A DNA stretch of 64,000 bases from an uncultured Candidatus Saccharibacteria bacterium (GTDB lineage Bacteria > Patescibacteriota > Minisyncoccia > Phycocordibacterales > UBA9973): contig CAZQSY010000003.1 of NCBI GenBank assembly GCA_964596395.1, forward strand, positions 25,678 to 89,677. The letters are read 5' to 3'. Below are positions 8,005 through 61,800 of this stretch, one piece after another. Every line of letters starts with the position of its first letter. Position 1 is the first letter of the stretch. The translations under genes were made by a program, and so were the position numbers. Below the pieces are notes generated by a model, which was not told the origin of the DNA, did no database searches, and saw only the letters and a list, made by a program, of their open reading frames with translations.

Positions 8005-8078
8005 GCCGGTGTAGCTCAGGTGGTTAGAGCGCCACTTTTGTAAAGTGGATGTCGAGGGTTCGAATCCTTCCACCGGCT
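8005..8078 (+). tRNA. tRNA-Thr (anticodon TGT)
   Basis: GCCGGTG/CACCGGC acceptor stem, D-arm GCTC-AGGTGGTTA-GAGC, anticodon stem CCACT/AGTGG with loop TTTGTAA, T-arm GAGGG-TTCGAAT-CCTTC. Total 74 nt, and the 3' CCA is not encoded. Confidence 0.85.
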
Positions 8079-8081
8079 CAG

Positions 8082-8159
8082 TTGGTACCTGCCTGCCGGC
8101 AGGCAGGGAACAACGCTTTCGTAAAGCGAAGGTCCTCGGTTCGAATCCGACGAGCCAAG
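8082..8159 (+). tRNA. aberrant tRNA-like sequence (possible tRNA-Thr, anticodon CGT) with the D-arm replaced by the 20-bp REP-like palindrome
   Basis: Canonical T-arm GGTTCGAATCC at 8138-8148. Anticodon hairpin ACGCT-TTCGTAA-AGCGA with one mismatch. Acceptor stem TTGGTAC/GAGCCAA is 6 of 7 paired including a G-U wobble. The D-arm position is occupied by CCTGCCTGCCGGCAGGCAGG (8088-8107), and ~6 extra nt precede the anticodon stem. This is either a non-canonical tRNA or a tRNA pseudogene disrupted by the repeat. Confidence 0.35.
8088..8107. repeat. REP-1 palindrome copy 1 (CCTGCCTGCCGGCAGGCAGG, perfect 10+10)
   Basis: Perfect 20-bp palindrome. Related copies lie at 19597, 22765 and 50064. Confidence 0.8.
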
Positions 8160-8452
8160 CTCCAGCAAAATCTATAAATAAAATTGAAACGTTCAACACC
8201 TTTCCACCTCCACAATCACCCTCAAAAAGTGATATGAGTAACGCCTACGAAAATGATTACAAAGAAATCGTTCCCATACAGACAGCTAGCGTTCCTATCG
8301 GCAACTATCTGGCGACGGTAGCGGCGGTGGCAGCGGCGATAGTTCTCAGGTTTTTTCTAATCAGAAAAATAGGGCTAAAAAGAAAAAGGCGCTAACTGCG
8401 TCACTACAATATAAAGAGTGAACATCTTTTTATTGCCCGCACACGTGCGAAC

Positions 8453-19267: not shown

Positions 19268-19564
19268 CTACATACTGCTTCCTTGCCCGCCGTCTTGCTT
19301 TGGCTCACAAACCCCGTCTTTGCATTTTTCACACCCGCAACCAAATATCGTCATCACACCCGCCACACCGACAAGCAAATAAACCAGCGCTTCAACAAGC
19401 GGAACCGAACCGAGCAGCATACCGACTATGTTCCATCCGCTGTAACTTCCAAGGAACATACCGAGGCCAACTAGACCCCAGTTTACGGCACCTACGACAA
19501 CCAGCACCTTGACCAAAACGCTCACGGTGCAACCCCACTTGCCGCAGCAATATCCTTTACACAT
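19268..19564 (-). CDS. DUF378-family small membrane protein with Cys-rich termini
   Basis: 'VVGAVNWGLVGLGMF...WNIVGMLLG' matches the DUF378 pattern. Cys clusters MCKGYCCGKWGC and CGCEKCKDGVC lie at the termini. Confidence 0.55.
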   Translation of the reverse strand: MCKGYCCGKWGCTVSVLVKVLVVVGAVNWGLVGLGMFLGSYSGWNIVGMLLGSVPLVEALVYLLVGVAGVMTIFGCGCEKCKDGVCEPKQDGGQGSSM

Positions 19565-19596
19565 AGTTTTTTGTTTTTAATTATTTATAATTTTCA

Positions 19597-19616
19597 ACCT
19601 GCCTGCCGACAGGCAG
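19597..19616. repeat. REP-1 palindrome copy 2 (CCTGCCTGCCGACAGGCAGG, 1 substitution)
   Basis: Intergenic, about 100 bp upstream of the RAYT-like transposase gene. Confidence 0.75.
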
Positions 19617-19663
19617 GGACCCTTCACGGTACATATTATACCACGACTTCGTTTTCTTTAGTT

Positions 19664-19690
19664 AAAATGAGCAAGGACTCCCCTTGCTCA
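19664..19690 (+). repeat. 27-bp hairpin repeat, left copy (AAAATGAGCAAGGACTCCCCTTGCTCA; 9-bp stem, 5-nt loop)
   Basis: Identical to 20394-20420, in direct orientation, flanking the Y1 transposase gene. Confidence 0.85.
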
Positions 19691-19719
19691 AGATGGGAGT
19701 AAAATTATATAATTGAAGG

Positions 19720-20394
19720 ATGTATAGAAAAACCCCATTTGCAGAAAATGAGCATTATCACATCTATGACAGAGGAGTGGAAAAGCGCAAAATTTTTCTT
19801 TCAAAAAAAGATTATCAGCGCTTTGTGGCCCTCCTGTACATTATGAATCAGGACGAGTCGTTCAGAATGGACAATTTTTTGCGCGAAGAAGAAAACAAGC
19901 TAGGCAATATATTCAACGAAGAAAGGAGCAAAACCCTGGTCGCCGTTTTAGGTTATTGCCTAATGCCAAACCATTTTCATTTGATTCTATATGAAAAGAG
20001 GGAAGGGGGTATAAGTAAATTTATGGCCAAACTTTTAACCGCTTACTCAATGTACTTCAACACAAAATATGAAAGAAGCGGCCCGCTCTTTACCCGACCT
20101 TTCAGGTCAGAATATATAGATAACGAACCGCAATTTATGTATATATTCTCGTATGTGCACTTGAATCCTCTTTCAGTCTTAGACAGAAAGTGGAAAGAAA
20201 ATGGCATAAAAAACAGAGACGAAGCGGAGAAATTTCTGGAAAATTATGATTACTCCAGTTATCAGGACTTCCTTAGTGCAGAAAGAGTAGAATCAAAAAT
20301 CGTTGACTTTTCTCTTGTGCCGAAATATATAAAAAACATGAGAATGGATTTAGACACGCAAGAAAAAAACCTGAGCATAAATGACGAGAGGTGA
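19720..20394 (+). CDS. HuH Y1 transposase of the IS200-like / REP-associated tyrosine transposase (RAYT, PF01797-like) family
   Basis: 'YHIYDRGVEKRKIFLSKKDYQRFVALL' matches the 'YHVtqRG..r..IF.ddeD...fl.lL' pattern. 'GYCLMPNHFHLIL' is the HuH motif. 'FMYIFSYVHLNPL' places the catalytic Tyr in the Y-x-x-x-NP context. At 224 aa it is longer than classic IS200 TnpA. Confidence 0.7.
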   Translation: MYRKTPFAENEHYHIYDRGVEKRKIFLSKKDYQRFVALLYIMNQDESFRMDNFLREEENKLGNIFNEERSKTLVAVLGYCLMPNHFHLILYEKREGGISKFMAKLLTAYSMYFNTKYERSGPLFTRPFRSEYIDNEPQFMYIFSYVHLNPLSVLDRKWKENGIKNRDEAEKFLENYDYSSYQDFLSAERVESKIVDFSLVPKYIKNMRMDLDTQEKNLSINDER

Positions 20395-20420
20395 AAATGA
20401 GCAAGGACTCCCCTTGCTCA
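20394..20420 (+). repeat. 27-bp hairpin repeat, right copy
   Basis: Identical to 19664-19690. Confidence 0.85.
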
Positions 20421-20432
20421 TTTTGTACGCTT

Positions 20433-21614
20433 TTAGTCAAAGTAATTCTTCAGCCGGGCGATTTTTTCGTGCTGGCGCAGTTTCTCATGCACTTTTGCCT
20501 CAATCTGGCGGATGCGTTCGCGAGTCACGCCAAATCTTTCCCCGACATTCTCTAACGTGTGCTGAATACCGTCTTTCAGGCCGTAGCGCATTTCTAAAAT
20601 TTCCCGCTCCTTGTCTGAAAGCTCAGCGAGTACTTCGCGAATCTGGTCAGAAAGAATTCTCCTAGACGACTCCTGGTCGGGACGCAGGATTTTGTCGTCC
20701 GGAATGAAGTTTTCCAGAGTGGACTTGTCGTCATCATCCCCTACCGGCTGTTCCAAGGATATAGTATCCTGGCTGATGCTTTCAATGGTGTGAATTTTCT
20801 CCACCGGCACGCCCATTTCGGTGGCAATCTCTTCGGCCAGGGGCTCCCGGCCCAAATCCTGCGAAAGTTTTCTGTAAACCTGTTTGTATTTGGAAATCGT
20901 TTCCACCATGTGCACCGGTATGCGGATGGTTCTGGACTGGTCGGCCAGCGCGCGGGTTATAGATTGTCGAATCCACCAAGTGGCATAAGTCGAAAACTTG
21001 TAGCCCTTGGTCCAGTCGAATTTTTCCACTGCCTTAAACAGGCCCAGATTGCCTTCTTGGATAAGGTCAAGGAGTGAAAGGTTGGCGGAGCGGCCGACAT
21101 ATTTCTTGGCAATAGACACAACTAAGCGCAGGTTTGCCCTAGCCAGCAGATTTTTCGCCTCCACATCCCCCGCTTCTATGCGCTTAGCAAGTTCTTTTTC
21201 GTCCACCGCGTGAATAAGCGAATACTGCCCGATTTCCTTCAGATACATCTGTATCGAATCATGCGTAGAGGATTTAGAGAGTTCTTTGTCTAGGGTATCT
21301 TCTTCAAGGTTGAGCAAATTCCCGCCTTCGAGCACGTCCACCCCGGCCGCAGAAAACTTCTCGTACAGCTCATCCAAAAAGAGAATATTGTTCTCTATAT
21401 CCGGAAAGGTCTTTAATATTTCGTCGTAAGTAACGAACCCCCTCTTTCTGCCTTTCTCTAAGAGAATCAAGGACAACCTGCTAAATTCGTCGGCCTTCTT
21501 AGCGGAAACGGACGGCCTGAGGGATTTTGTTTTCTTCGCCTCTTTCTTTTTTGAAATTTTTTTCTTCGTTTTTTTTCTGCCGGACTTCAATTTTTTGCTC
21601 GTTTTTTTCTTCAT
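20433..21614 (-). CDS. rpoD: RNA polymerase primary sigma factor (sigma-70)
   Basis: Lys-rich N-terminus. '[16 protein letters not shown]' is region 1.2. '[39 protein letters not shown]' is region 2. '[23 protein letters not shown]' is region 4. Confidence 0.9.
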
Positions 21615-21628
21615 TGTGTTTATTTTTT

Positions 21629-23488
21629 TTAAACGACCGTTTTTAATTCTTGTATCTTTTTGTTTATCTCGTTTATTTCCCGCAAAATTTTCTCCGCTCC
21701 TTCTTTCTCTGCCCTTGATTCCATTCCGTGCAGCGCGTTCATTTTGGATGCAAGCGTCTCCCTCAAATGTTCTAAAACAAAATTCCGCGCGAGCTCGTCA
21801 AAATCTTTTCTGATGTCGACATCCCCTCCATAAAAAACCTCCGCTTCAAAAATTAAATCACCTTCGTTCTCCTGCGTACCCGAAAAAATTTCTTCTGCCT
21901 TGCATCCTAGCATATCCGAAATTTTATCAAGCACCTCCTCTACATTTATGGCCGGTTCGGGTAATTTTTTTTGCCACAAAATTATTCCCAAAATCCTTTG
22001 CTTGATATAGTCCTTTCTGGAGGGAAAATTTTTCGTTTCTCCGGTTCCGCTCCTTCCCCCCGTTTCGGCCGAAGAACCTTTTTCTTTTTCCAACCCGGCT
22101 AAATCCTCACGCAAAGCGCTTTCGCTGATTCCCGACAAGTCAGCGATTTTTTTGATGAACACGTCTCTTTCGATACGGCTCGGAAGTTCCAGAACGTACG
22201 GCAATACTTTTTCCCTTATTCCCCGGCCGGCCTTACGCGCATCTTTCCCGCTTTCCTTAAGTACCGCCCGCAAAACGAATTCTATTATGTGACAAGAATC
22301 GCGCACGGCTTTCTTCCAAGCATCCGGCCCTAATTTAGAAATGACGTCTGCCGGGTCCATACCTTCGGGTATAGAGGCAATTTTCACATCCATCCCCAAA
22401 GATAGCGCGATTCTGCCGGCCCGCATAGCGGCACCAAAACCGGCCTTATCCGCATCAAAGGAAAGAATAATATTCTGCGAAAGCCGCCCCAGAAGCCCTA
22501 GTCCCGAAACAGACTTTTCTCGGGAACGTTCTTCTTCCGAGGAAATTTTTGAAATCGTGGATTCCGACAAGGCAGTGCCCGAAGTGGCCACGGTATTTCT
22601 GAAGCCCGCCTGATGTGAAAGCAGCAAGTCCATCTGTCCTTCGACCATAATCGAGAAATTATTTCTGCGTATTGAATCCTTGGCTTTGTCTAAACCGTAC
22701 AAAACCGAGGACTTGTTGAAAATCGGCGTTTCCGGACTGTTCAGATATTTGGCCTGACTTATCACCTGCCTGCCGCCTGCCTGTCCGGTAGACAGGGCAG
22801 GCAGGTCGTCTTTAAAAATCCTGCCCGAAAAAGCTATTACTCGGCCGCTCGAATCGGAAATCGGGAAAACAATTCGCCCGCGAAACCTGTCGTAAAAACC
22901 CGAGCCGTTGTCAGCTTTTTTGATAAGCCCCGCTTGCTCCATTTCTTTCTCAGAAAAACCGAGGGTCTTCAGATGAGAAAAAAGCGCCCGCCATTCTTCC
23001 TGCGCCCAACCCAGTTTGAATTCCTTTATAGTGGAGTCCTTAAGTCCTCTATCTCTCAAGTATTTAAGCGCCTCTTCGTTTTGCCAAAGATTTTTTTCAA
23101 AGAACCCGGCCGATTCCAAAACCGCACGGTATAGTCTATCTTTTTCGCCTTCTTTTTCCTGATTCCATTCACGAAGAGATATGCCGGCACGGTCAGCGAG
23201 CACTTTGAGCGCTCCCCGAAAATCAAGCCCCTCAAACTCTTCCACAAAAGAAAATATATCCCCCTTCGCCCCGCAGCCGAAACAATAGTAGCTCCCGCGG
23301 TCGGGCGACACGAAGAAAGAAGGAGTTTTTTCGCTGTGAAAGGGACACCTTGCTTTTAGGTTCTTGCCCGCTTTTTCCAATTTCAGATATGAAGAAACCA
23401 CTTCTTCTATAGAGAGCCTCTCCTTGATTTGTTCCGCAGGAGAAATCATCGCTTTTTTTGTTTGGCGAAAAAAATTTCCGTCAGCCAC
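21629..23488 (-). CDS. dnaG: DNA primase
   Basis: CHC2 zinc finger '[30 protein letters not shown]'. TOPRIM motifs '[10 protein letters not shown]' and '[11 protein letters not shown]'. '[11 protein letters not shown]' is also present. There is a 16-aa insertion encoded by the REP-like palindrome (see findings). Confidence 0.9.
22765..22805. repeat. REP-1 palindrome copy 3, expanded imperfect variant (CCTGCCTGCCGCCTGCCTGTCCGGTAGACAGGGCAGGCAGG), in-frame inside dnaG
   Basis: Read on the minus strand it encodes [16 protein letters not shown] within DnaG. Confidence 0.75.
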
Positions 23489-45313: not shown

Positions 45314-45484
45314 TGTAAGTTTCTTTTTTGTGGAGATTATTTACAACGCAAGAATCAGACCTCTAGACCTTTTCGGCCAGACCTTAATAAAGAGGCGGTT
45401 ATTAATATATGCGTGTAAAACTTTATTCACAGTTTTTATGTATATCAAACTTGTTTACCCAAGTAAAGTGCCACCTGTGGATAA

Positions 45485-45553
45485 CCCGCACACTTACTTT
45501 TTTGATGCGCCCTGGGCGCATTGTAATCAATATCAAGAAAGTAAGTGTGCGGG
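45485..45553. repeat. 16-bp perfect inverted repeat (CCCGCACACTTACTTT...AAAGTAAGTGTGCGGG) enclosing an inner 8-bp palindrome (ATGCGCCC tg GGGCGCAT), 4 nt past the pheT stop
   Basis: Read directly from the sequence. It forms a long stem-loop in the pheT 3' UTR. Confidence 0.7.
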
Positions 45554-45557
45554 ATAA

Positions 45558-47450
45558 CTACCTCACCCGCCAGCCAGAGTTTTCCTCAAGCTTTGCTTTA
45601 ATTTTTTCCATCACGGCGTTGACTTCTTGGTCGGTAAGCGTGCGTTCGTACGATTGAAATACCAGCCGAAAGGCATAAGAGGTCTTATCCCCTTTTGTGA
45701 AAGAATCAAAAAGCGTCGGGCCTTTGATTACCATTTCTCCCGTATTTTCTTTGATAACTTTTTCTACTTTTGAAACTTCCACTCCTGACGGCACCCACAG
45801 CGCGATATCGCGAGCGATGAAAGGAAACAAAGACCAGGGCCTAAAAGCCGAACCCGTATGCTTTTCTGAATGGTCTGGTTGAGCCCGCTCTTCCAAAGAA
45901 TCTTGCGCGGGCGACCCGAGGACCTGAAGAAAAGCATCGGGTGAGGCGTCCTTACAAAATTCATCAAGCGTCATTTCTTTTATTCCCTTTTTATCGCCAT
46001 AAGCGACGCGTGCCTCTTCTTTGTCTTTCAAAAACACAGTTCCGATTTCAAAAATTTTAATTTCCTCCGCATCCAGAAGCGGAGCATTGAGCATGTTCAG
46101 CTTCAGACTCTCTTTCAGTCCGTCCGCCAAATTCGTCCGCAAATGTTTTTTGTCCGAGGCCGAAGCTAGCACTTCAACATCACCCTTATCTCTGAAAACA
46201 TAAGTCATCACTTCCGAGTACCCTTCTTCAAGCAGTTTGTTTCTTGCCCAACAAATCTTGGCGTAAGTATTATTTGCTTTCGGCTCGAATTCTATCTTCG
46301 GGATTTCTCCTTTTACCCTGTCGTACCCCAAAATCCTCCCAATTTCTTCTGCCATGTCTTCTTCAATCACCAAATCAAGCCGGAGAGGAGGGACGATAAT
46401 TTCAAACAAAACCCCCTCTGCCCCCTTATCAGGGGAAACTATTTTGTAAGGAAAATTATATCTCTTCAAGATTCCTTCGATCTCTTCCTTGGAAACTTCC
46501 AACCCCAGAATTTTTGAAATCTTTTCCGCGCTGAAAGTAAGTTTGTGTTCCGGCTGTTTCTTGGGATAAACATCCACGATATCCTCGAAAACCGCCCCGG
46601 GGCACATTTCGTAAATCAGAGCCGAGAGTTCTCGCATTCCATATTCGGCAAGCTCGGGAGACAAGTCGTTTTCGAAACGCTTGCGGGCGTCAGTAAAAAT
46701 GTTTTGCGTTTGCGCCGTCTTGCGCACCGATACCGGGTCAAAATTCGCTACTTCCAAAATTACATCCGAGGTACTTTCATCAACCTCGGCAATTTTTCCG
46801 CCTTTGATGCCGGCCAGCGCCAACACTCTTTCACCATCGGCAATCACCATGTTGGCGGGGCCGAGCTTTAATTCTTTGTTGTCTAGAGTTGTCATATCCT
46901 CCCCTTCCCGCGCCTGGCGCACTACCAATTTTTCTTTTACTTTTTTCAAATCAAAAACGTGCGTGGGCTGGCCGCAATTAAACATCACTAAATTCGCGGC
47001 ATCTACCATATTGTTTATGCTCCGCTGACCTATAGCTTCAAGATGCGCTTTTACCCAGTCGGGCGAAGGGCCGACTTTCACTCCCCTCACAATCCGCCCC
47101 ATGTACCGGCGGCATTTATCGCTCGCGATTTCTATCTTCAAGCCGGTCGGCCTGGATTCGGGCAATTTGTATTTCGGCGTCGGGTCGTTAAATTTTATAT
47201 CAAGCAGCGAAGCGAGCTCGCGCGCCACGCCCAAGTGAGAAAGCAAATCATGCGCCCGGTTCGGCAGAATGTTTATGTCAAAAATCACGTCGCCATCTTC
47301 TCTTTTTTCAACGCTTTCAACTTCGCACAAGTGATAAGTGAAAACATCCCGTAGTTTATCCACGTCGGGAACTCCCGCCTGTCCCCGATTATTCAGGAGG
47401 GCGGGCAGGTCCGGTATATACCATTTGAGCCAATTGTAGGAGATTTTCAT
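45558..47450 (-). CDS. pheT: phenylalanyl-tRNA synthetase beta subunit (short form)
   Basis: B3/4 and B5 domains plus the C-terminal class-II-like core. 630 aa. It follows pheS with a 3-nt gap. Confidence 0.9.
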   Translation of the reverse strand: MKISYNWLKWYIPDLPALLNNRGQAGVPDVDKLRDVFTYHLCEVESVEKREDGDVIFDINILPNRAHDLLSHLGVARELASLLDIKFNDPTPKYKLPESRPTGLKIEIASDKCRRYMGRIVRGVKVGPSPDWVKAHLEAIGQRSINNMVDAANLVMFNCGQPTHVFDLKKVKEKLVVRQAREGEDMTTLDNKELKLGPANMVIADGERVLALAGIKGGKIAEVDESTSDVILEVANFDPVSVRKTAQTQNIFTDARKRFENDLSPELAEYGMRELSALIYEMCPGAVFEDIVDVYPKKQPEHKLTFSAEKISKILGLEVSKEEIEGILKRYNFPYKIVSPDKGAEGVLFEIIVPPLRLDLVIEEDMAEEIGRILGYDRVKGEIPKIEFEPKANNTYAKICWARNKLLEEGYSEVMTYVFRDKGDVEVLASASDKKHLRTNLADGLKESLKLNMLNAPLLDAEEIKIFEIGTVFLKDKEEARVAYGDKKGIKEMTLDEFCKDASPDAFLQVLGSPAQDSLEERAQPDHSEKHTGSAFRPWSLFPFIARDIALWVPSGVEVSKVEKVIKENTGEMVIKGPTLFDSFTKGDKTSYAFRLVFQSYERTLTDQEVNAVMEKIKAKLEENSGWRVR

Positions 47451-58837: not shown

Positions 58838-61800
58838 TTACGGCAGACCTACCTCCGCGCCAACCGTATAGAAAGTAGACGGAGAACTTTGATTGTTGTA
58901 AGAAGTTTTGAGCCAATCAGCCGAACGTCCGACATTAGAAATGCGCACTTCATCAAGCTTTCCGGTATACGGTTCACCGGTGCCATTGGTCGCGCCGTTG
59001 TAAGTACTCATATAGATTGTATTTGGGGTTCCTGTAAGCGGAGCAGTAGTTGAAGTACACGATGAAGTACACTGTACTCCATCTATGTAAAGTTTGTTGT
59101 TGCTTCCGACACGGGTAAAGGCGATATGATGCCACACAGAATTTGAAGGAACGGCAGTTGAACCGATAATATTTGTGCCGGCAGATTGTTTTATTCTGAG
59201 TCTTCCCGAAGAGTCAAGAACAACCTGGGTAGCGTTACCGCTCGAAGAAACCTTAACTGTGAATATAGATTCCTGGTTTCCACTCGCTGATGGTTTGTTT
59301 AACCAAAATTCCATGGTCTGATCTGTGTTCAAAGCAGGCAAACTTGTAGCTGAGGTTTTTGATATATTTGCGCTACCGGGGAAATTTGCTCCGCCGTCAA
59401 ACTGGCCGGTAGTAGCCGTAACACTGCCATTAATTGTACCGTTATTCAAGCTAGAAGTTGAGTCAAGCGCGCCTAGTGTTACACCGTCGGGCAAGTGCCA
59501 CACGCCTTTGTAATTCGCATCCCACACCGCTGTTTTGCTCGACTGGTCGGTTGTAATACTTGCATCCCCGTAACCCATATAGAAAACTGTGTCTGCCGTA
59601 GCCGAGACCATCGGCACTTTCACCCAATACGCCACCTCGCCGGTTGCGGCCACGTACTTTTCCGTCTCCCAGGCAAGCTTCGTTGTTAAATTAGCATCGG
59701 AGTAGAAACCTATGTCGTAACCGTTCGCATTTTTTACTTTTCCGGTTGGCGGAATGTTGGAAAGATAAGGATAAGTCCCCGAGACCAGCACCGGAAAGTT
59801 CGTCTGGTTTGAACCTTGCACCTGCAGATAACTGATAGTAATTGCCCGCGCGTATCTGGAAGCAGGCGGAGCTGTGTTGAAAGTAGCCGTTACACTTTTA
59901 TCTGAAGTCATAGACAAAACGCACGAGCCCGTGCCGGTGCAAGCGCCCGACCAACCGACAAAACTTGAGTTTGCGCCCGCCAAAGCGGTGAGGGTGACGC
60001 TTGTGCCGTCGGTGAAGCTCGCAAAACAGGTAGGACTGCACGAAATTCCCGAAGGGCTTGAAGAAACTGTACCCGAGCCGGTACCGGCCAGAGAAACAGT
60101 TAGTGAACGAGAAACCGGCGGAGGAGCGGCCCCGGGCTTGAGCGGAACGGCTACCATGGCCCACCTTTCAGGGGGGGTAATGCTTGGATTCGCAGTCCAA
60201 GACATTGAAGTAGAGGTGGAACCCGGCTTGTCTGACCCTGCGATGAGCACATTGTTGTCGCCTGTGTTGGAAATCTTGTTATACCGCTCTGTTTGCCCTA
60301 CGGCTTTGGTCAGGGTCTGAGTAGCAGAGGCGCTTGTCTTTACTCCTACTACATCAACTACCAATTCCCCGCTCTGACTGGTTACGCTAATAGAAGGATT
60401 TGTTCCCGCTCTGCCGTCAACAACTGCCGTTCCTAGAGGTGTCGTTTGATTAACGCCGGAATAAGAAACAACACCCGCTGCCGCCCTGGTACTGACAGAA
60501 AAAGGAATATATACATTATTAAGCCCGGAAGGCGGGCTCAACATGTACCACAGTTCAGTGTAAATTCGCGCTCCGGAAACCGCGTCTTTGTGTTTTGCTA
60601 TAAGAGTCATCGGTTGTCCCGCGTAAGTCATTCCGGTTCCAGACACTTGGGGAGCATTAGTGCTCCACATACTGACCCCAACTACAAGAATTCTATTTGA
60701 GCCGGCACCGACGGTGTGAGGGATAGTAAGACTTCCCGCTGCGGTTCCTCCCGTGGTACCGTCTGACGACGCATCAAAAGCAATCTGCGCCGAAAGGTTG
60801 AAAGTTGCCATCACGGCCTGGTCGGAAGTCATAGAAAGAACGCACGAACCCGTACCAGTACAGGCGCCCGACCATCCAGCAAAGCTTGAATTGGCATCGG
60901 GTGTGGCGGTGAGGGTAACACTCGCGCCGTCTGAGAAACCCGCGCTGCAAATAGAACCACAGGAAATTCCCGACGGGCTAGAGGTAACCGTGCCGATTCC
61001 TCCGCCAGCCGGGGTTACGGTCAAAACGCGGCTTCCGGGCGGAGGTGTCGGACTTCCTGACATAATTTCCACCGTTCTCGCTTTCCATCCGCTTATGAAA
61101 GGGTCCATCGAAACGTCGGCACTTCCCCAAGAAGAAACCCCTTCGCCGGTGTCGTGTCCGGCTGCGCTTCCTGCCGCAGAAGCGTAAGTCCTGTTTATCA
61201 TACCCAAGGGGGGATTGTATACCGGCGCGCTTCCTCCGCGGTGGCCGGCGAAGCTGGCCACCCAGGAAGAACCGCTGGTATTGTTGAGGGACAGCGCCGG
61301 GTAAGTGATTATTGAACCGTATCCCCAAGAACTCGCGTTCGCGCCTATGGGGGTCGTAGAGCTGTTCCCGCGATAAATGTGCACCAGCGTTTCGGTGGCA
61401 TTTGTAGAAGTTACACTTCCTATACTACCGTCAGAGTCGATTATGTAAGCGAGACGGCTGGAATTGGTATCAGAACCCTCGGAAGTGCCGATTTCTGTCC
61501 AACCGGCAGGGGTCTGCGGCTTGACCGTACTGGCTCCGTCGCGATAAGCAAAAAGAATCAAGAGGTCGCCGGCTTGATGCACGGGCACCAATACCGTATC
61601 TCCCCCGGCATCGTTAGCCGCCACGAAAGTTACATTGCTGTTTGAAGTACTGCCGAAGTTTGCTCCCACACTCATGTTACCGGCTAAGGTAAGATTGCAA
61701 GCGCCGGTGCCGGTGCACGCGCCGGACCAGCCGTTAAAGACAGAACTCGCGTCCGGAGAAGCCGACAGAGTTACCATGTCTCCTTCGGTGAAATTGAACG

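Follow-up and report, generated by a model that had tools for sequence, protein, structure and literature searches.

A RAYT-like Y1 gene between two copies of a conserved 23-nt hairpin in a Patescibacteriota genome: a probable REPtron-like unit

What does a small transposase-like protein do when its gene is enclosed by two identical hairpins and a third, different palindrome lies next to it? We met this arrangement in a 64,000-nucleotide stretch of DNA from an uncultured Candidatus Saccharibacteria bacterium (contig CAZQSY010000003.1 of assembly GCA_964596395.1; the whole stretch is called the window hereafter), where a gene resembling REP-associated tyrosine transposases (RAYTs, named after repetitive extragenic palindromes, REPs) has a hairpin on each side and a copy of another palindrome, REP-1, further left. 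A first-pass annotation of the window had asked which of the two hairpins the enzyme mobilises. The answer that we favour, at a probability of roughly 0.6, is a REPtron-like unit, in which a single-copy, vertically inherited gene for a RAYT-type Y1 HUH nuclease lies between two "home" copies of its cognate 23-nt hairpin, and in which the enzyme would bind, cut and rejoin hairpin single-stranded DNA (ssDNA), copying or homogenising the hairpin copies while the gene itself stays put. The elements concerned are as follows.

19720..20394, plus strand: Y1 HUH (RAYT-like) gene, 224 aa, from the open reading frame (ORF) call, Pfam, alignment, an AlphaFold2 model and a fold match
19664..19690, plus strand: upstream repeat copy, a 27-mer, from exact repetition and DNA folding; TTTT follows the hairpin on the minus strand
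19668-19690: hairpin proper within the upstream copy, TGAGCAAGG-ACTCC-CCTTGCTCA
20394..20424, plus strand: downstream repeat copy, the 27-mer at 20394-20420 extended to a 13-bp stem, AAAATGAGCAAGG-ACTCC-CCTTGCTCATTTT
19598..19617: REP-1 palindrome CCTGCCTGCCGACAGGCAGG, 46 nt left of the upstream hairpin copy, fold -10 kcal/mol

The 224-aa protein is predicted to be a Y1 HUH enzyme of the RAYT type, with the Y---NP motif of class 2 and the REP-bound RAYT of E. coli as its best fold match. Its HUH motif, N84-H85-F86-H87-L-I-L, is encoded at 19969-19989 (H85-F-H87 at 19972-19980), and the catalytic Tyr145, with its codon at 20152-20154, opens the sequence Y145-V-H-L-N-P (residues 145-150, encoded at 20152-20169). 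H85, H87 and Y145 are invariant in an alignment of close relatives (A1) and at least 90% conserved in an alignment of relatives that are 33-47% identical (A2). Pfam Y1_Tnp matches at 34.6 bits against a cut-off of 23 and was the only family returned by the Pfam scan at E <= 0.1, which found no helix-turn-helix (HTH) domain. A fold search was needed because a search of the PDB by sequence gave marginal matches only, to ISDra2 at E of about 0.1. The AlphaFold2 model from the deeper alignment reached a predicted local distance difference test score (pLDDT) of 95 and has a structured C-terminal extension; a first model, from a shallow alignment, was discarded at pLDDT 61. The top PDB match in Foldseek was 4ER8_A, the E. 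coli RAYT bound to REP (E = 1.4e-6, template modelling score 0.64 on the target), with the TnpA proteins of IS608 and ISDra2 ranking behind it. ORF, motifs, Pfam match and fold match thus agree with the first-pass description of a protein with an HuH motif (HFHLIL) and a C-terminal tyrosine in the RAYT arrangement.

The flanking repeats are equally clear. The 27-mer AAAATGAGCAAGGACTCCCCTTGCTCA occurs exactly twice in the 64 kb, both times on the plus strand and with the loop ACTCC on the coding strand, as the first-pass annotation had described; no third copy was found in the window at up to three mismatches, and none in 100 shuffles (chance expectation 0). The upstream copy ends 29 nt before the ATG, and the downstream copy has the final base of the TGA stop as its first. 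The hairpin proper measures 23 nt, with a 9-bp stem and a 5-nt loop, and folds as DNA at -9.8 kcal/mol (z = -3.5), whereas in the downstream copy AAAA and TTTT carry the stem to 13 bp (-13.4 kcal/mol, z = -6.5). The unit of 27 bp proposed at first pass is indeed present twice, but its 5' AAAA lies outside the family-wide unit, and what is conserved in relatives is the 23-nt hairpin only. Across the Y1 gene an inverted-repeat scan found nothing besides the hairpin itself, and an Rfam search gave a single, chance-level small RNA match (E = 0.24).

Is this layout peculiar to the window? A homologue search returned more than 2,000 relatives at E <= 0.001 and a profile search 556 cluster representatives at E <= 1e-30; the best 120 relatives are all about 225 aa long, 68-76% identical and from Parcubacteria/Nomurabacteria-type metagenome-assembled genomes (MAGs). 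We compared 80 metagenomic loci together with several contigs found by exact protein look-up; the counts for the family refer to 82 distinct related genes (27-77% identity). In almost every fetched locus there is a hairpin of the form xxxxC(A/G)AGG-ACT(A/C)C-CCT(T/C)Gxxxx, with one copy ending 24-30 nt (about 28) before the ATG and a second at or just around the stop codon. Perfect hairpins were found on both sides of 49 of the 72 distinct genes that have sequence on both sides, upstream only in 10, downstream only in 7 and on neither side in 6; with one or two mismatches allowed, the upstream hairpin is present in about 78 of the 82 distinct loci. The loop and inner stem are conserved, while the outer stem varies between organisms (TGAGC, CCAGC, TCAGC, AATC, TGCAC, TTCGC, AATATC) and always keeps its pairing, as in the stems TGAGCAAGG, CCAGCAAGG, GAGCGAGG, AATCGAGG, TGCACAAGG and ATATCAAGG.

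The two hairpins of a locus also change together. Both copies have the same inner stem in 45 of the 49 loci, as against a mean of 21.5 and a maximum of 30 with shuffled partners; the flanking copies evolve in concert within a genome, and the hairpin diverges between genomes and between paralogues. Homologues that are 44-47% identical retain the TGAGCAAGG hairpin. A 27%-identical paralogue has its own hairpin, TTGTGCATAC-cca/tgg-GTATGCACAA, at the same two positions, a 40%-identical paralogue has the hairpin CAGCGGT-tga/tca-ACCGCTG, which is also found in three other loci, and one Kaiserbacteria MAG encodes two paralogues, each with a hairpin of its own. A hairpin that changes with the paralogue is the pattern that one would expect of an enzyme and its cognate DNA site, and the CAGCGGT hairpin and the 40%-identical paralogue appear to be a second enzyme-hairpin pair in the same bacterial group. 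Members of this second family (CAGCGGT-tNa-ACCGCTG) were seen at L098:2151, 2372 and 2859, L025:6882, L089:6848 and L127:1004 (L numbers denote fetched loci).

Orientation, by contrast with pairing, is loosely held. It is set by the 5-nt loop alone, and the loops are direct in 33 of the 49 loci, with one or both flipped in 13. The first-pass annotation had considered identical direct hairpins an unusual configuration; in the family this is the majority state, and the loop flips freely. Because IS608-type elements carry similar left and right hairpins on one strand, direct hairpins alone do not set the locus apart in any case. We also noted partial copies of the arms beside 45 of 240 hairpins (about one in five), one to three each, with pieces of the 5' arm upstream and of the 3' arm, such as (A)CTTGCTCA, downstream, sometimes nested into longer imperfect palindromes (for example L009:2055-2090, L064:3935-3975, L125:2120-2200, L069:3935-3985, L011:2840-2895 and others).

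The simplest account of such hairpins would be that they are ordinary intrinsic terminators, or a local duplication, unrelated to the enzyme. The downstream copy does lie where Y1 and rpoD converge, between their two stop codons, and with its 13-bp stem and A4/T4 it is shaped like a terminator that works in both directions; the upstream copy, the only one called by a consensus scan, resembles a terminator on the minus strand. Terminators do not keep their sequence, yet one loop and one inner stem recur on the flanks of the gene in about 80 loci from different organisms. The two copies also co-vary within each genome, a different paralogue comes with a different hairpin, and copies occur in frame inside genes (see below). 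In addition, at locus L002 an extra ORF intervenes between the Y1 gene and rpoD and the hairpin stays beside the Y1 gene; hence it is not simply the rpoD terminator. We regard this account as highly improbable.

The family-wide layout could equally be that of a mobile element, and its neighbourhood and inheritance bear on this point. Two neighbouring genes serve as synteny anchors.

20433..21614, minus strand: rpoD (sigma-70), convergent neighbour, from Pfam Sigma70 domains
19268..19564, minus strand: gene for a DUF378 small membrane protein, divergent upstream neighbour

In about 26 related loci the gene has the place that it has in the window, in the order GT2, DUF378, (DsbA-like), Y1, rpoD, dnaG, rpoC (context A); two further contexts recur about nine times each and a few are rarer, so that there are at least four recurrent contexts in all. 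Every locus examined has one copy of the Y1 gene. Among the 11 complete context-A loci, distances between Y1 proteins follow those between RpoD proteins (Mantel r = 0.76, with 0 of 2000 permutations as high) and DnaG proteins (r = 0.72), and mean p-distances are 0.28 for Y1, 0.14 for RpoD and 0.39 for DnaG; the divergence of Y1 is thus congruent with that of RpoD and slower than that of DnaG. Neither the hairpin nor the protein was found among IMG/VR viral contigs, and on plasmids we found only proteins 24-29% identical and annotated as "transposase". Judged by synteny and divergence, the Y1 gene appears to be a vertically inherited, single-copy resident and not an insertion sequence (IS).

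An autonomous minimal IS of the IS200/IS605 type, whose hairpins would be the left and right subterminal ends of a unit of roughly 730 bp that moves whole by peel-and-paste, therefore has to be weighed against this picture, and we hold it to be quite unlikely. IS608-type elements do have this layout, one Y1 gene with a same-strand hairpin at each end, the unit occurs in the several recurrent contexts just described, its guanine-plus-cytosine content (0.37-0.39 for gene plus hairpins) departs from that of the neighbours (0.43-0.51), and in one genome the context-B position holds a lone hairpin and a gene other than Y1. Against this, the Y1 gene has one match in the 64-kb window and one copy per locus; synteny beside rpoD is kept across lineages, with a mean Y1 divergence of 28% that is congruent with RpoD and DnaG; the motif is Y---NP and not the Y---Q of IS200, and the protein has 224 aa and not about 150 (PMC6006769, Table 1). 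Moreover, the hairpin occurs alone at many places, including the inside of genes, the loop at either end can be flipped, and outside the hairpins there are no conserved cleavage sequences.

A search for an empty site of the whole gene gave only one suggestive case. It is at L138:7700-8000, where the gene known from context B as the neighbour of Y1 has a solo hairpin, AAAAAACTGAGCAAGG-GTAGT-CCTTGCTCAGTTTTTT, at its 3' end and a small SHOCT-like gene occupies the Y1 position; this site could be empty or vacated. Locus L148 has neither hairpin nor gene at the context-B position. In the window itself, 19565-19663 holds about 150 nt, including REP-1, where relatives have a DsbA/thioredoxin-like gene (230-250 aa), which suggests that the DsbA-like gene was deleted from between DUF378 and Y1.

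If the gene stays where it is, do the hairpins? The first-pass annotation had proposed a search for further copies. None lies beyond the two flanks in the window, but in related MAGs copies are scattered away from the gene, so that the outcome which the annotation had named as refuting its reading (a hairpin found at this locus only, with a protein that clusters among inactive domesticated TnpA-like ones) did not arise. Scanning one genome per GTDB species for exact copies of TGAGCAAGGACTNCCCTTGCTCA revealed 93 of them spread over 48 assemblies, none of which has more than 7. With one exception, their labels name a Patescibacteria lineage or unclassified bacteria; the outlier, a contig of 1 kb assigned to Nanoarchaeia, has flanks that closely match L111. 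Most of the 93 copies are far from any Y1 gene. In 409 kb of metagenomic loci the hairpins were confined to within about 1.1 kb of the Y1 gene. Third hairpins near Y1 bracket one complete unrelated gene (deformylase-like, YkuD-like, methyltransferase, EamA-like or NUDIX-like); capture of integron-like cassettes was considered here and dropped, since any intergenic repeat in a compact genome brackets single genes and there was no array structure.

Of the dispersed copies, 62 of 93 lie between genes or at the edge of one, while 88% of that DNA is coding, and many have A/T tracts that lengthen the stem and make it terminator-like. The remaining 31 lie inside long ORFs by a crude ORF call, a few of them artefacts at the ends of Y1 genes (for example L136, L152, L166); after removal of these, roughly a quarter of the copies are in frame inside real genes, where they are translated as EQG(E/L)(S/P)LL or SK(G/D)(S/Y)PCS. 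The genes concerned are the following.

L093:5864, L122:6566, L164:5301: hairpin in LeuRS, three genomes, same site
L101:1248, L156:3884: hairpin in a UvrD-like helicase, two genomes
L118:7025, L158:27, L162:2020, L164:1889: hairpin in an S-adenosylmethionine-dependent methyltransferase, four genomes
L130:1873: hairpin in RsmA
L154:3207, L147:4893: hairpin in an Obg-like GTPase
L120:7924: hairpin in GyrB
one further case: hairpin in a DHODH-like protein

When filled and empty orthologues are compared, the filled ones are longer by a net 6 aa (18 nt) at each of four independent sites (in LeuRS, RsmA, Obg and a DUF protein), with insert boundaries that sequences as divergent as these leave ambiguous. 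In both the methyltransferase and UvrD, filled sites that are orthologous can have the loop flipped, ACTAC in one and GGAGT in the other. In LeuRS, the insert's own cysteine stands in for the second cysteine of a CxxC knuckle.

These in-gene copies cut both ways, as they might also suit a fully domesticated hairpin-binding protein with a host role in regulation, termination or the processing of stalled forks, for which the hairpins would be fixed cis-elements. Exact 23-nt hairpins at orthologous sites (LeuRS in three genomes, the methyltransferase in four) while the flanking coding sequence diverges speak for such a role, and so do the terminator-like A/T tracts of many copies, the slow vertical evolution of the gene and the overlap of the upstream hairpin with a predicted promoter. 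A domesticated protein would, however, sit poorly with the strict conservation of the catalytic HUH and Tyr residues and with filled and empty orthologues that differ by a net 6 aa at the same site, and hairpin families that are specific to a paralogue, each of them dispersed, fit copying better than fixed operators. We consider full domestication unlikely.

Several observations nevertheless weigh against the REPtron-like unit. The protein scores 39.2 bits with the curated RAYT equivalog of NCBIfam (NF047646, REP_Tyr_transpos), below the cut-off of 80. In REPs, a 5' GT[AG]G guide tetranucleotide is read by residues of the W94/Q95/R104 type (PMC6006769), and the WQ or WE residues that read GTAG in the E. 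coli RAYT are replaced here by F-T, within the motif L-F-T-R-P-F. The flanks of the 93 copies hold no GT[AG]G foot and no other conserved tetranucleotide or flank, and no doublets of the type called REPINs (REP doublets forming hairpins) were seen. Copy number is low: no MAG holds more than 7 exact copies, classical REPs being far more numerous, and in the window the hairpin is present only at the two flanks of the Y1 gene. Exact hairpins at orthologous sites across species could reflect host function and not mobility. Finally, no cleavage site can be deduced from the partial arms, as their breakpoints spread from the stem into the loop.

With the family in view, the question of which hairpin belongs to the enzyme can be answered. 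REP-1 occurs three times in the window, the other copies being at 8088 and 50063, and the copy to the left of the hairpin is present as first noted; we measure a distance of 46 nt. Among all fetched loci there are two further matches (L117, L145), and those loci have no Y1 match. Because REP-1 is absent beside the Y1 gene elsewhere, it is not a candidate substrate and was rejected as such; it is an incidental neighbour that fills the gap where relatives have the DsbA-like gene. The hairpin on which the enzyme acts is, to judge from these associations, most likely the 23-nt one.

REP-1 and its kin are found in other settings in this genome. The dnaG gene (21629-23488, minus strand) has an in-frame insert of about 14 aa at 22745-22810, coded by the GC-rich, REP-1-like palindrome CCTGCCTGCCCTGTCTACCGGACAGGCAGGCGGCAGGCAGG and absent from most orthologues; therefore the second palindrome family of the genome also sits inside a gene. 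At 8005-8079 a tRNA-Thr(UGU) gene is directly followed by the REP-1 copy at 8088-8107, after which (window 8080-8165) come an apparent anticodon arm (CGT), a T arm and the 3' acceptor of a second tRNA-Thr with no 5' half, for which ARAGORN made no call. This second tRNA-Thr gene may have been disrupted or truncated at the REP-1 palindrome.

How might the 23-nt hairpin and the enzyme work together? In the REPtron-like unit that we favour, the protein would bind the folded hairpin on ssDNA; what it recognises is probably the loop ACTMC, which is conserved, together with the RGG/CCY pairs that close it, and not a GTAG foot. Tyr145 would then cut and rejoin ssDNA at the hairpin, and this cutting and rejoining would copy, move or homogenise the hairpin copies, including those within genes. 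The home copies may in addition be tied to expression of the gene, as two predicted promoter elements indicate.

19708..19713, plus strand: TATAAT -10 box (predicted), 6 nt before the ATG
19684..19689, plus strand: weak -35-like hexamer TTGCTC (predicted), in the 3' arm of the hairpin at the upstream copy and 18 nt ahead of the -10 box

When the upstream regions of 57 related genes are aligned, 42-55 of them agree with T-A-T-A-A-T at positions -12 to -7 from the ATG. The hexamer TTGCTC was missed by the consensus scan because it matches the consensus -35 at only 3 of 6 bases; it was placed on the grounds that the -10 box is conserved and that the distance of 24-30 nt from hairpin to ATG is conserved as well. 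A T-rich stretch directly follows the upstream hairpin. Since the TATAAT box lies 6 nt before the ATG, the Y1 transcript would be leaderless or nearly so. In IS200 the upstream hairpin blocks read-in transcription. By its geometry the upstream home copy here, which overlaps the -35 region, could likewise insulate the gene from read-in, and from the overlap we infer that autoregulation would be permitted; the geometry of the downstream copy suggests that it doubles as a terminator common to Y1 and the convergent rpoD.

Two repeats elsewhere in the window deserve mention. At 45477-45561 there is a 30-nt inverted repeat with 25 nt between its arms and with DnaA-box-like sequences of the GTGGATAAC / GTTATCCCGCAC type, which could be part of a replication origin. 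At 59876-60073 and 60797-60994 lie two 198-nt direct repeats, 72% identical and 921 nt apart.

RAYT and REP are the best example of a transposase that settled down, was inherited vertically and came to keep a population of short repeats, and they have been characterised almost only in Proteobacteria and Cyanobacteria, with subclass 2.1 of the Y1 transposases (see below) lacking a known DNA partner. The locus described here and its roughly 80 relatives offer a compact case from the ultra-small bacteria of the candidate phyla radiation (CPR), in which a tiny perfect hairpin co-varies with the enzyme, keeps fixed distances and overlaps a predicted promoter and terminator. A bolder reading, which we put forward as doubtful, is that the hairpin is the first cognate DNA partner for subclass 2.1 (group 1 of Bertels, described as REP-less) and represents a new class of REP, namely a perfect 23-nt hairpin that is read via its loop, is kept at a few copies in streamlined CPR genomes, enters essential genes in frame as a 6-aa insert (LeuRS, RsmA, Obg, UvrD, GyrB) and has its loop flipped in situ. 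In that case the enzyme would be an editor of ssDNA that works slowly and is tolerated by its host, with an activity that can be read from filled and empty sites. With oligonucleotides and one 224-aa protein one can test whether loop or foot is recognised, where the cut falls, and what repeats cost or bring a minimal genome. For annotators, the locus shows that "transposase" calls beside rpoD in Parcubacteria mark neither mobile elements nor assembly breakpoints.

Where, then, does the pair stand among known systems? In the classification of TnpA_Y1 proteins by Quentin et al. 2018 (PMC6006769, Table 1), a Y---NP motif marks class 2 and Y---Q marks IS200. Subclass 2.1, which corresponds to group 1 of Bertels, is the second-largest overall and the largest outside IS200; its members have a C-terminal HTH (like Bac_DnaA_C, HTH_23 or HTH_28), some of them (TIRYT) have terminal inverted repeats GGGG[AT][CG]A[CG], and automatic and manual searches by the authors found no REP-like sequences near the genes (PMC6006769). 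Similarly, Bertels et al. 2017 (PMC5581495) found counts of flanking 16-mers only slightly elevated in group 1. The protein described here resembles subclass 2.1 in its motifs (NH[YF]H, Y[IV]HLNP and a C-proximal SS), in a length near 238 aa and in low copy number; unlike that subclass it has no HTH by Pfam and no GGGG[AT][CG]A[CG] repeats, but clear flanking hairpins. Its motifs and length, by which the assignment was made, fit membership in subclass 2.1.

The closest parallel is the REPtron of the E. coli RAYT (TnpA_REP, 4ER8, subclass 2.2). Both have a single-copy Y1 HUH gene with Y---NP, a cognate hairpin on both sides of the gene and dispersed besides (here, in related genomes), co-diversification of hairpin and protein, and vertical inheritance, and 4ER8 is the best fold match. 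In contrast to the E. coli system, the foot of the hairpin has no 5' GT[AG]G, and conservation falls on the loop ACTMC with its closing pairs; the 9-bp stem is perfect and has no bulge; most copies stand singly and share one loop orientation instead of forming inverted doublets; and they number a few to tens, not hundreds. The protein itself differs in its 224 aa, in the F-T that replaces the GTAG-reading W-Q/E, and in its NCBIfam RAYT score below the cut-off.

With IS200/IS608 (subclass 1.1) the locus shares one small Y1 gene between two same-strand subterminal hairpins. What those elements have besides is absent here: they spread horizontally, occur in many near-identical copies and encode a core-only protein of some 150 aa with a Y---Q motif; instead, orthologues are 58-77% identical and occupy a few recurrent contexts, rather than being near-identical copies in variable contexts. 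A further likeness is to Rickettsia palindromic elements (RPEs), which are 100-150 bp long, and to REPs inserted within genes, in that a short palindrome lies in frame in conserved genes and adds a small peptide. The unit here differs from RPEs in its length of 23 nt, which adds a net 18 nt or so (6 aa) to a gene, and in that a candidate enzyme is encoded between two of its copies; we know of no cognate enzyme for RPEs. In the literature that we searched, no paper connects RAYT or Y1 proteins with Parcubacteria. Taken together, the comparison describes an undescribed variant of the RAYT/hairpin pair and not an active IS200, a variant with the motifs of subclass 2.1, without a GTAG foot, with a conserved loop and at low copy number.

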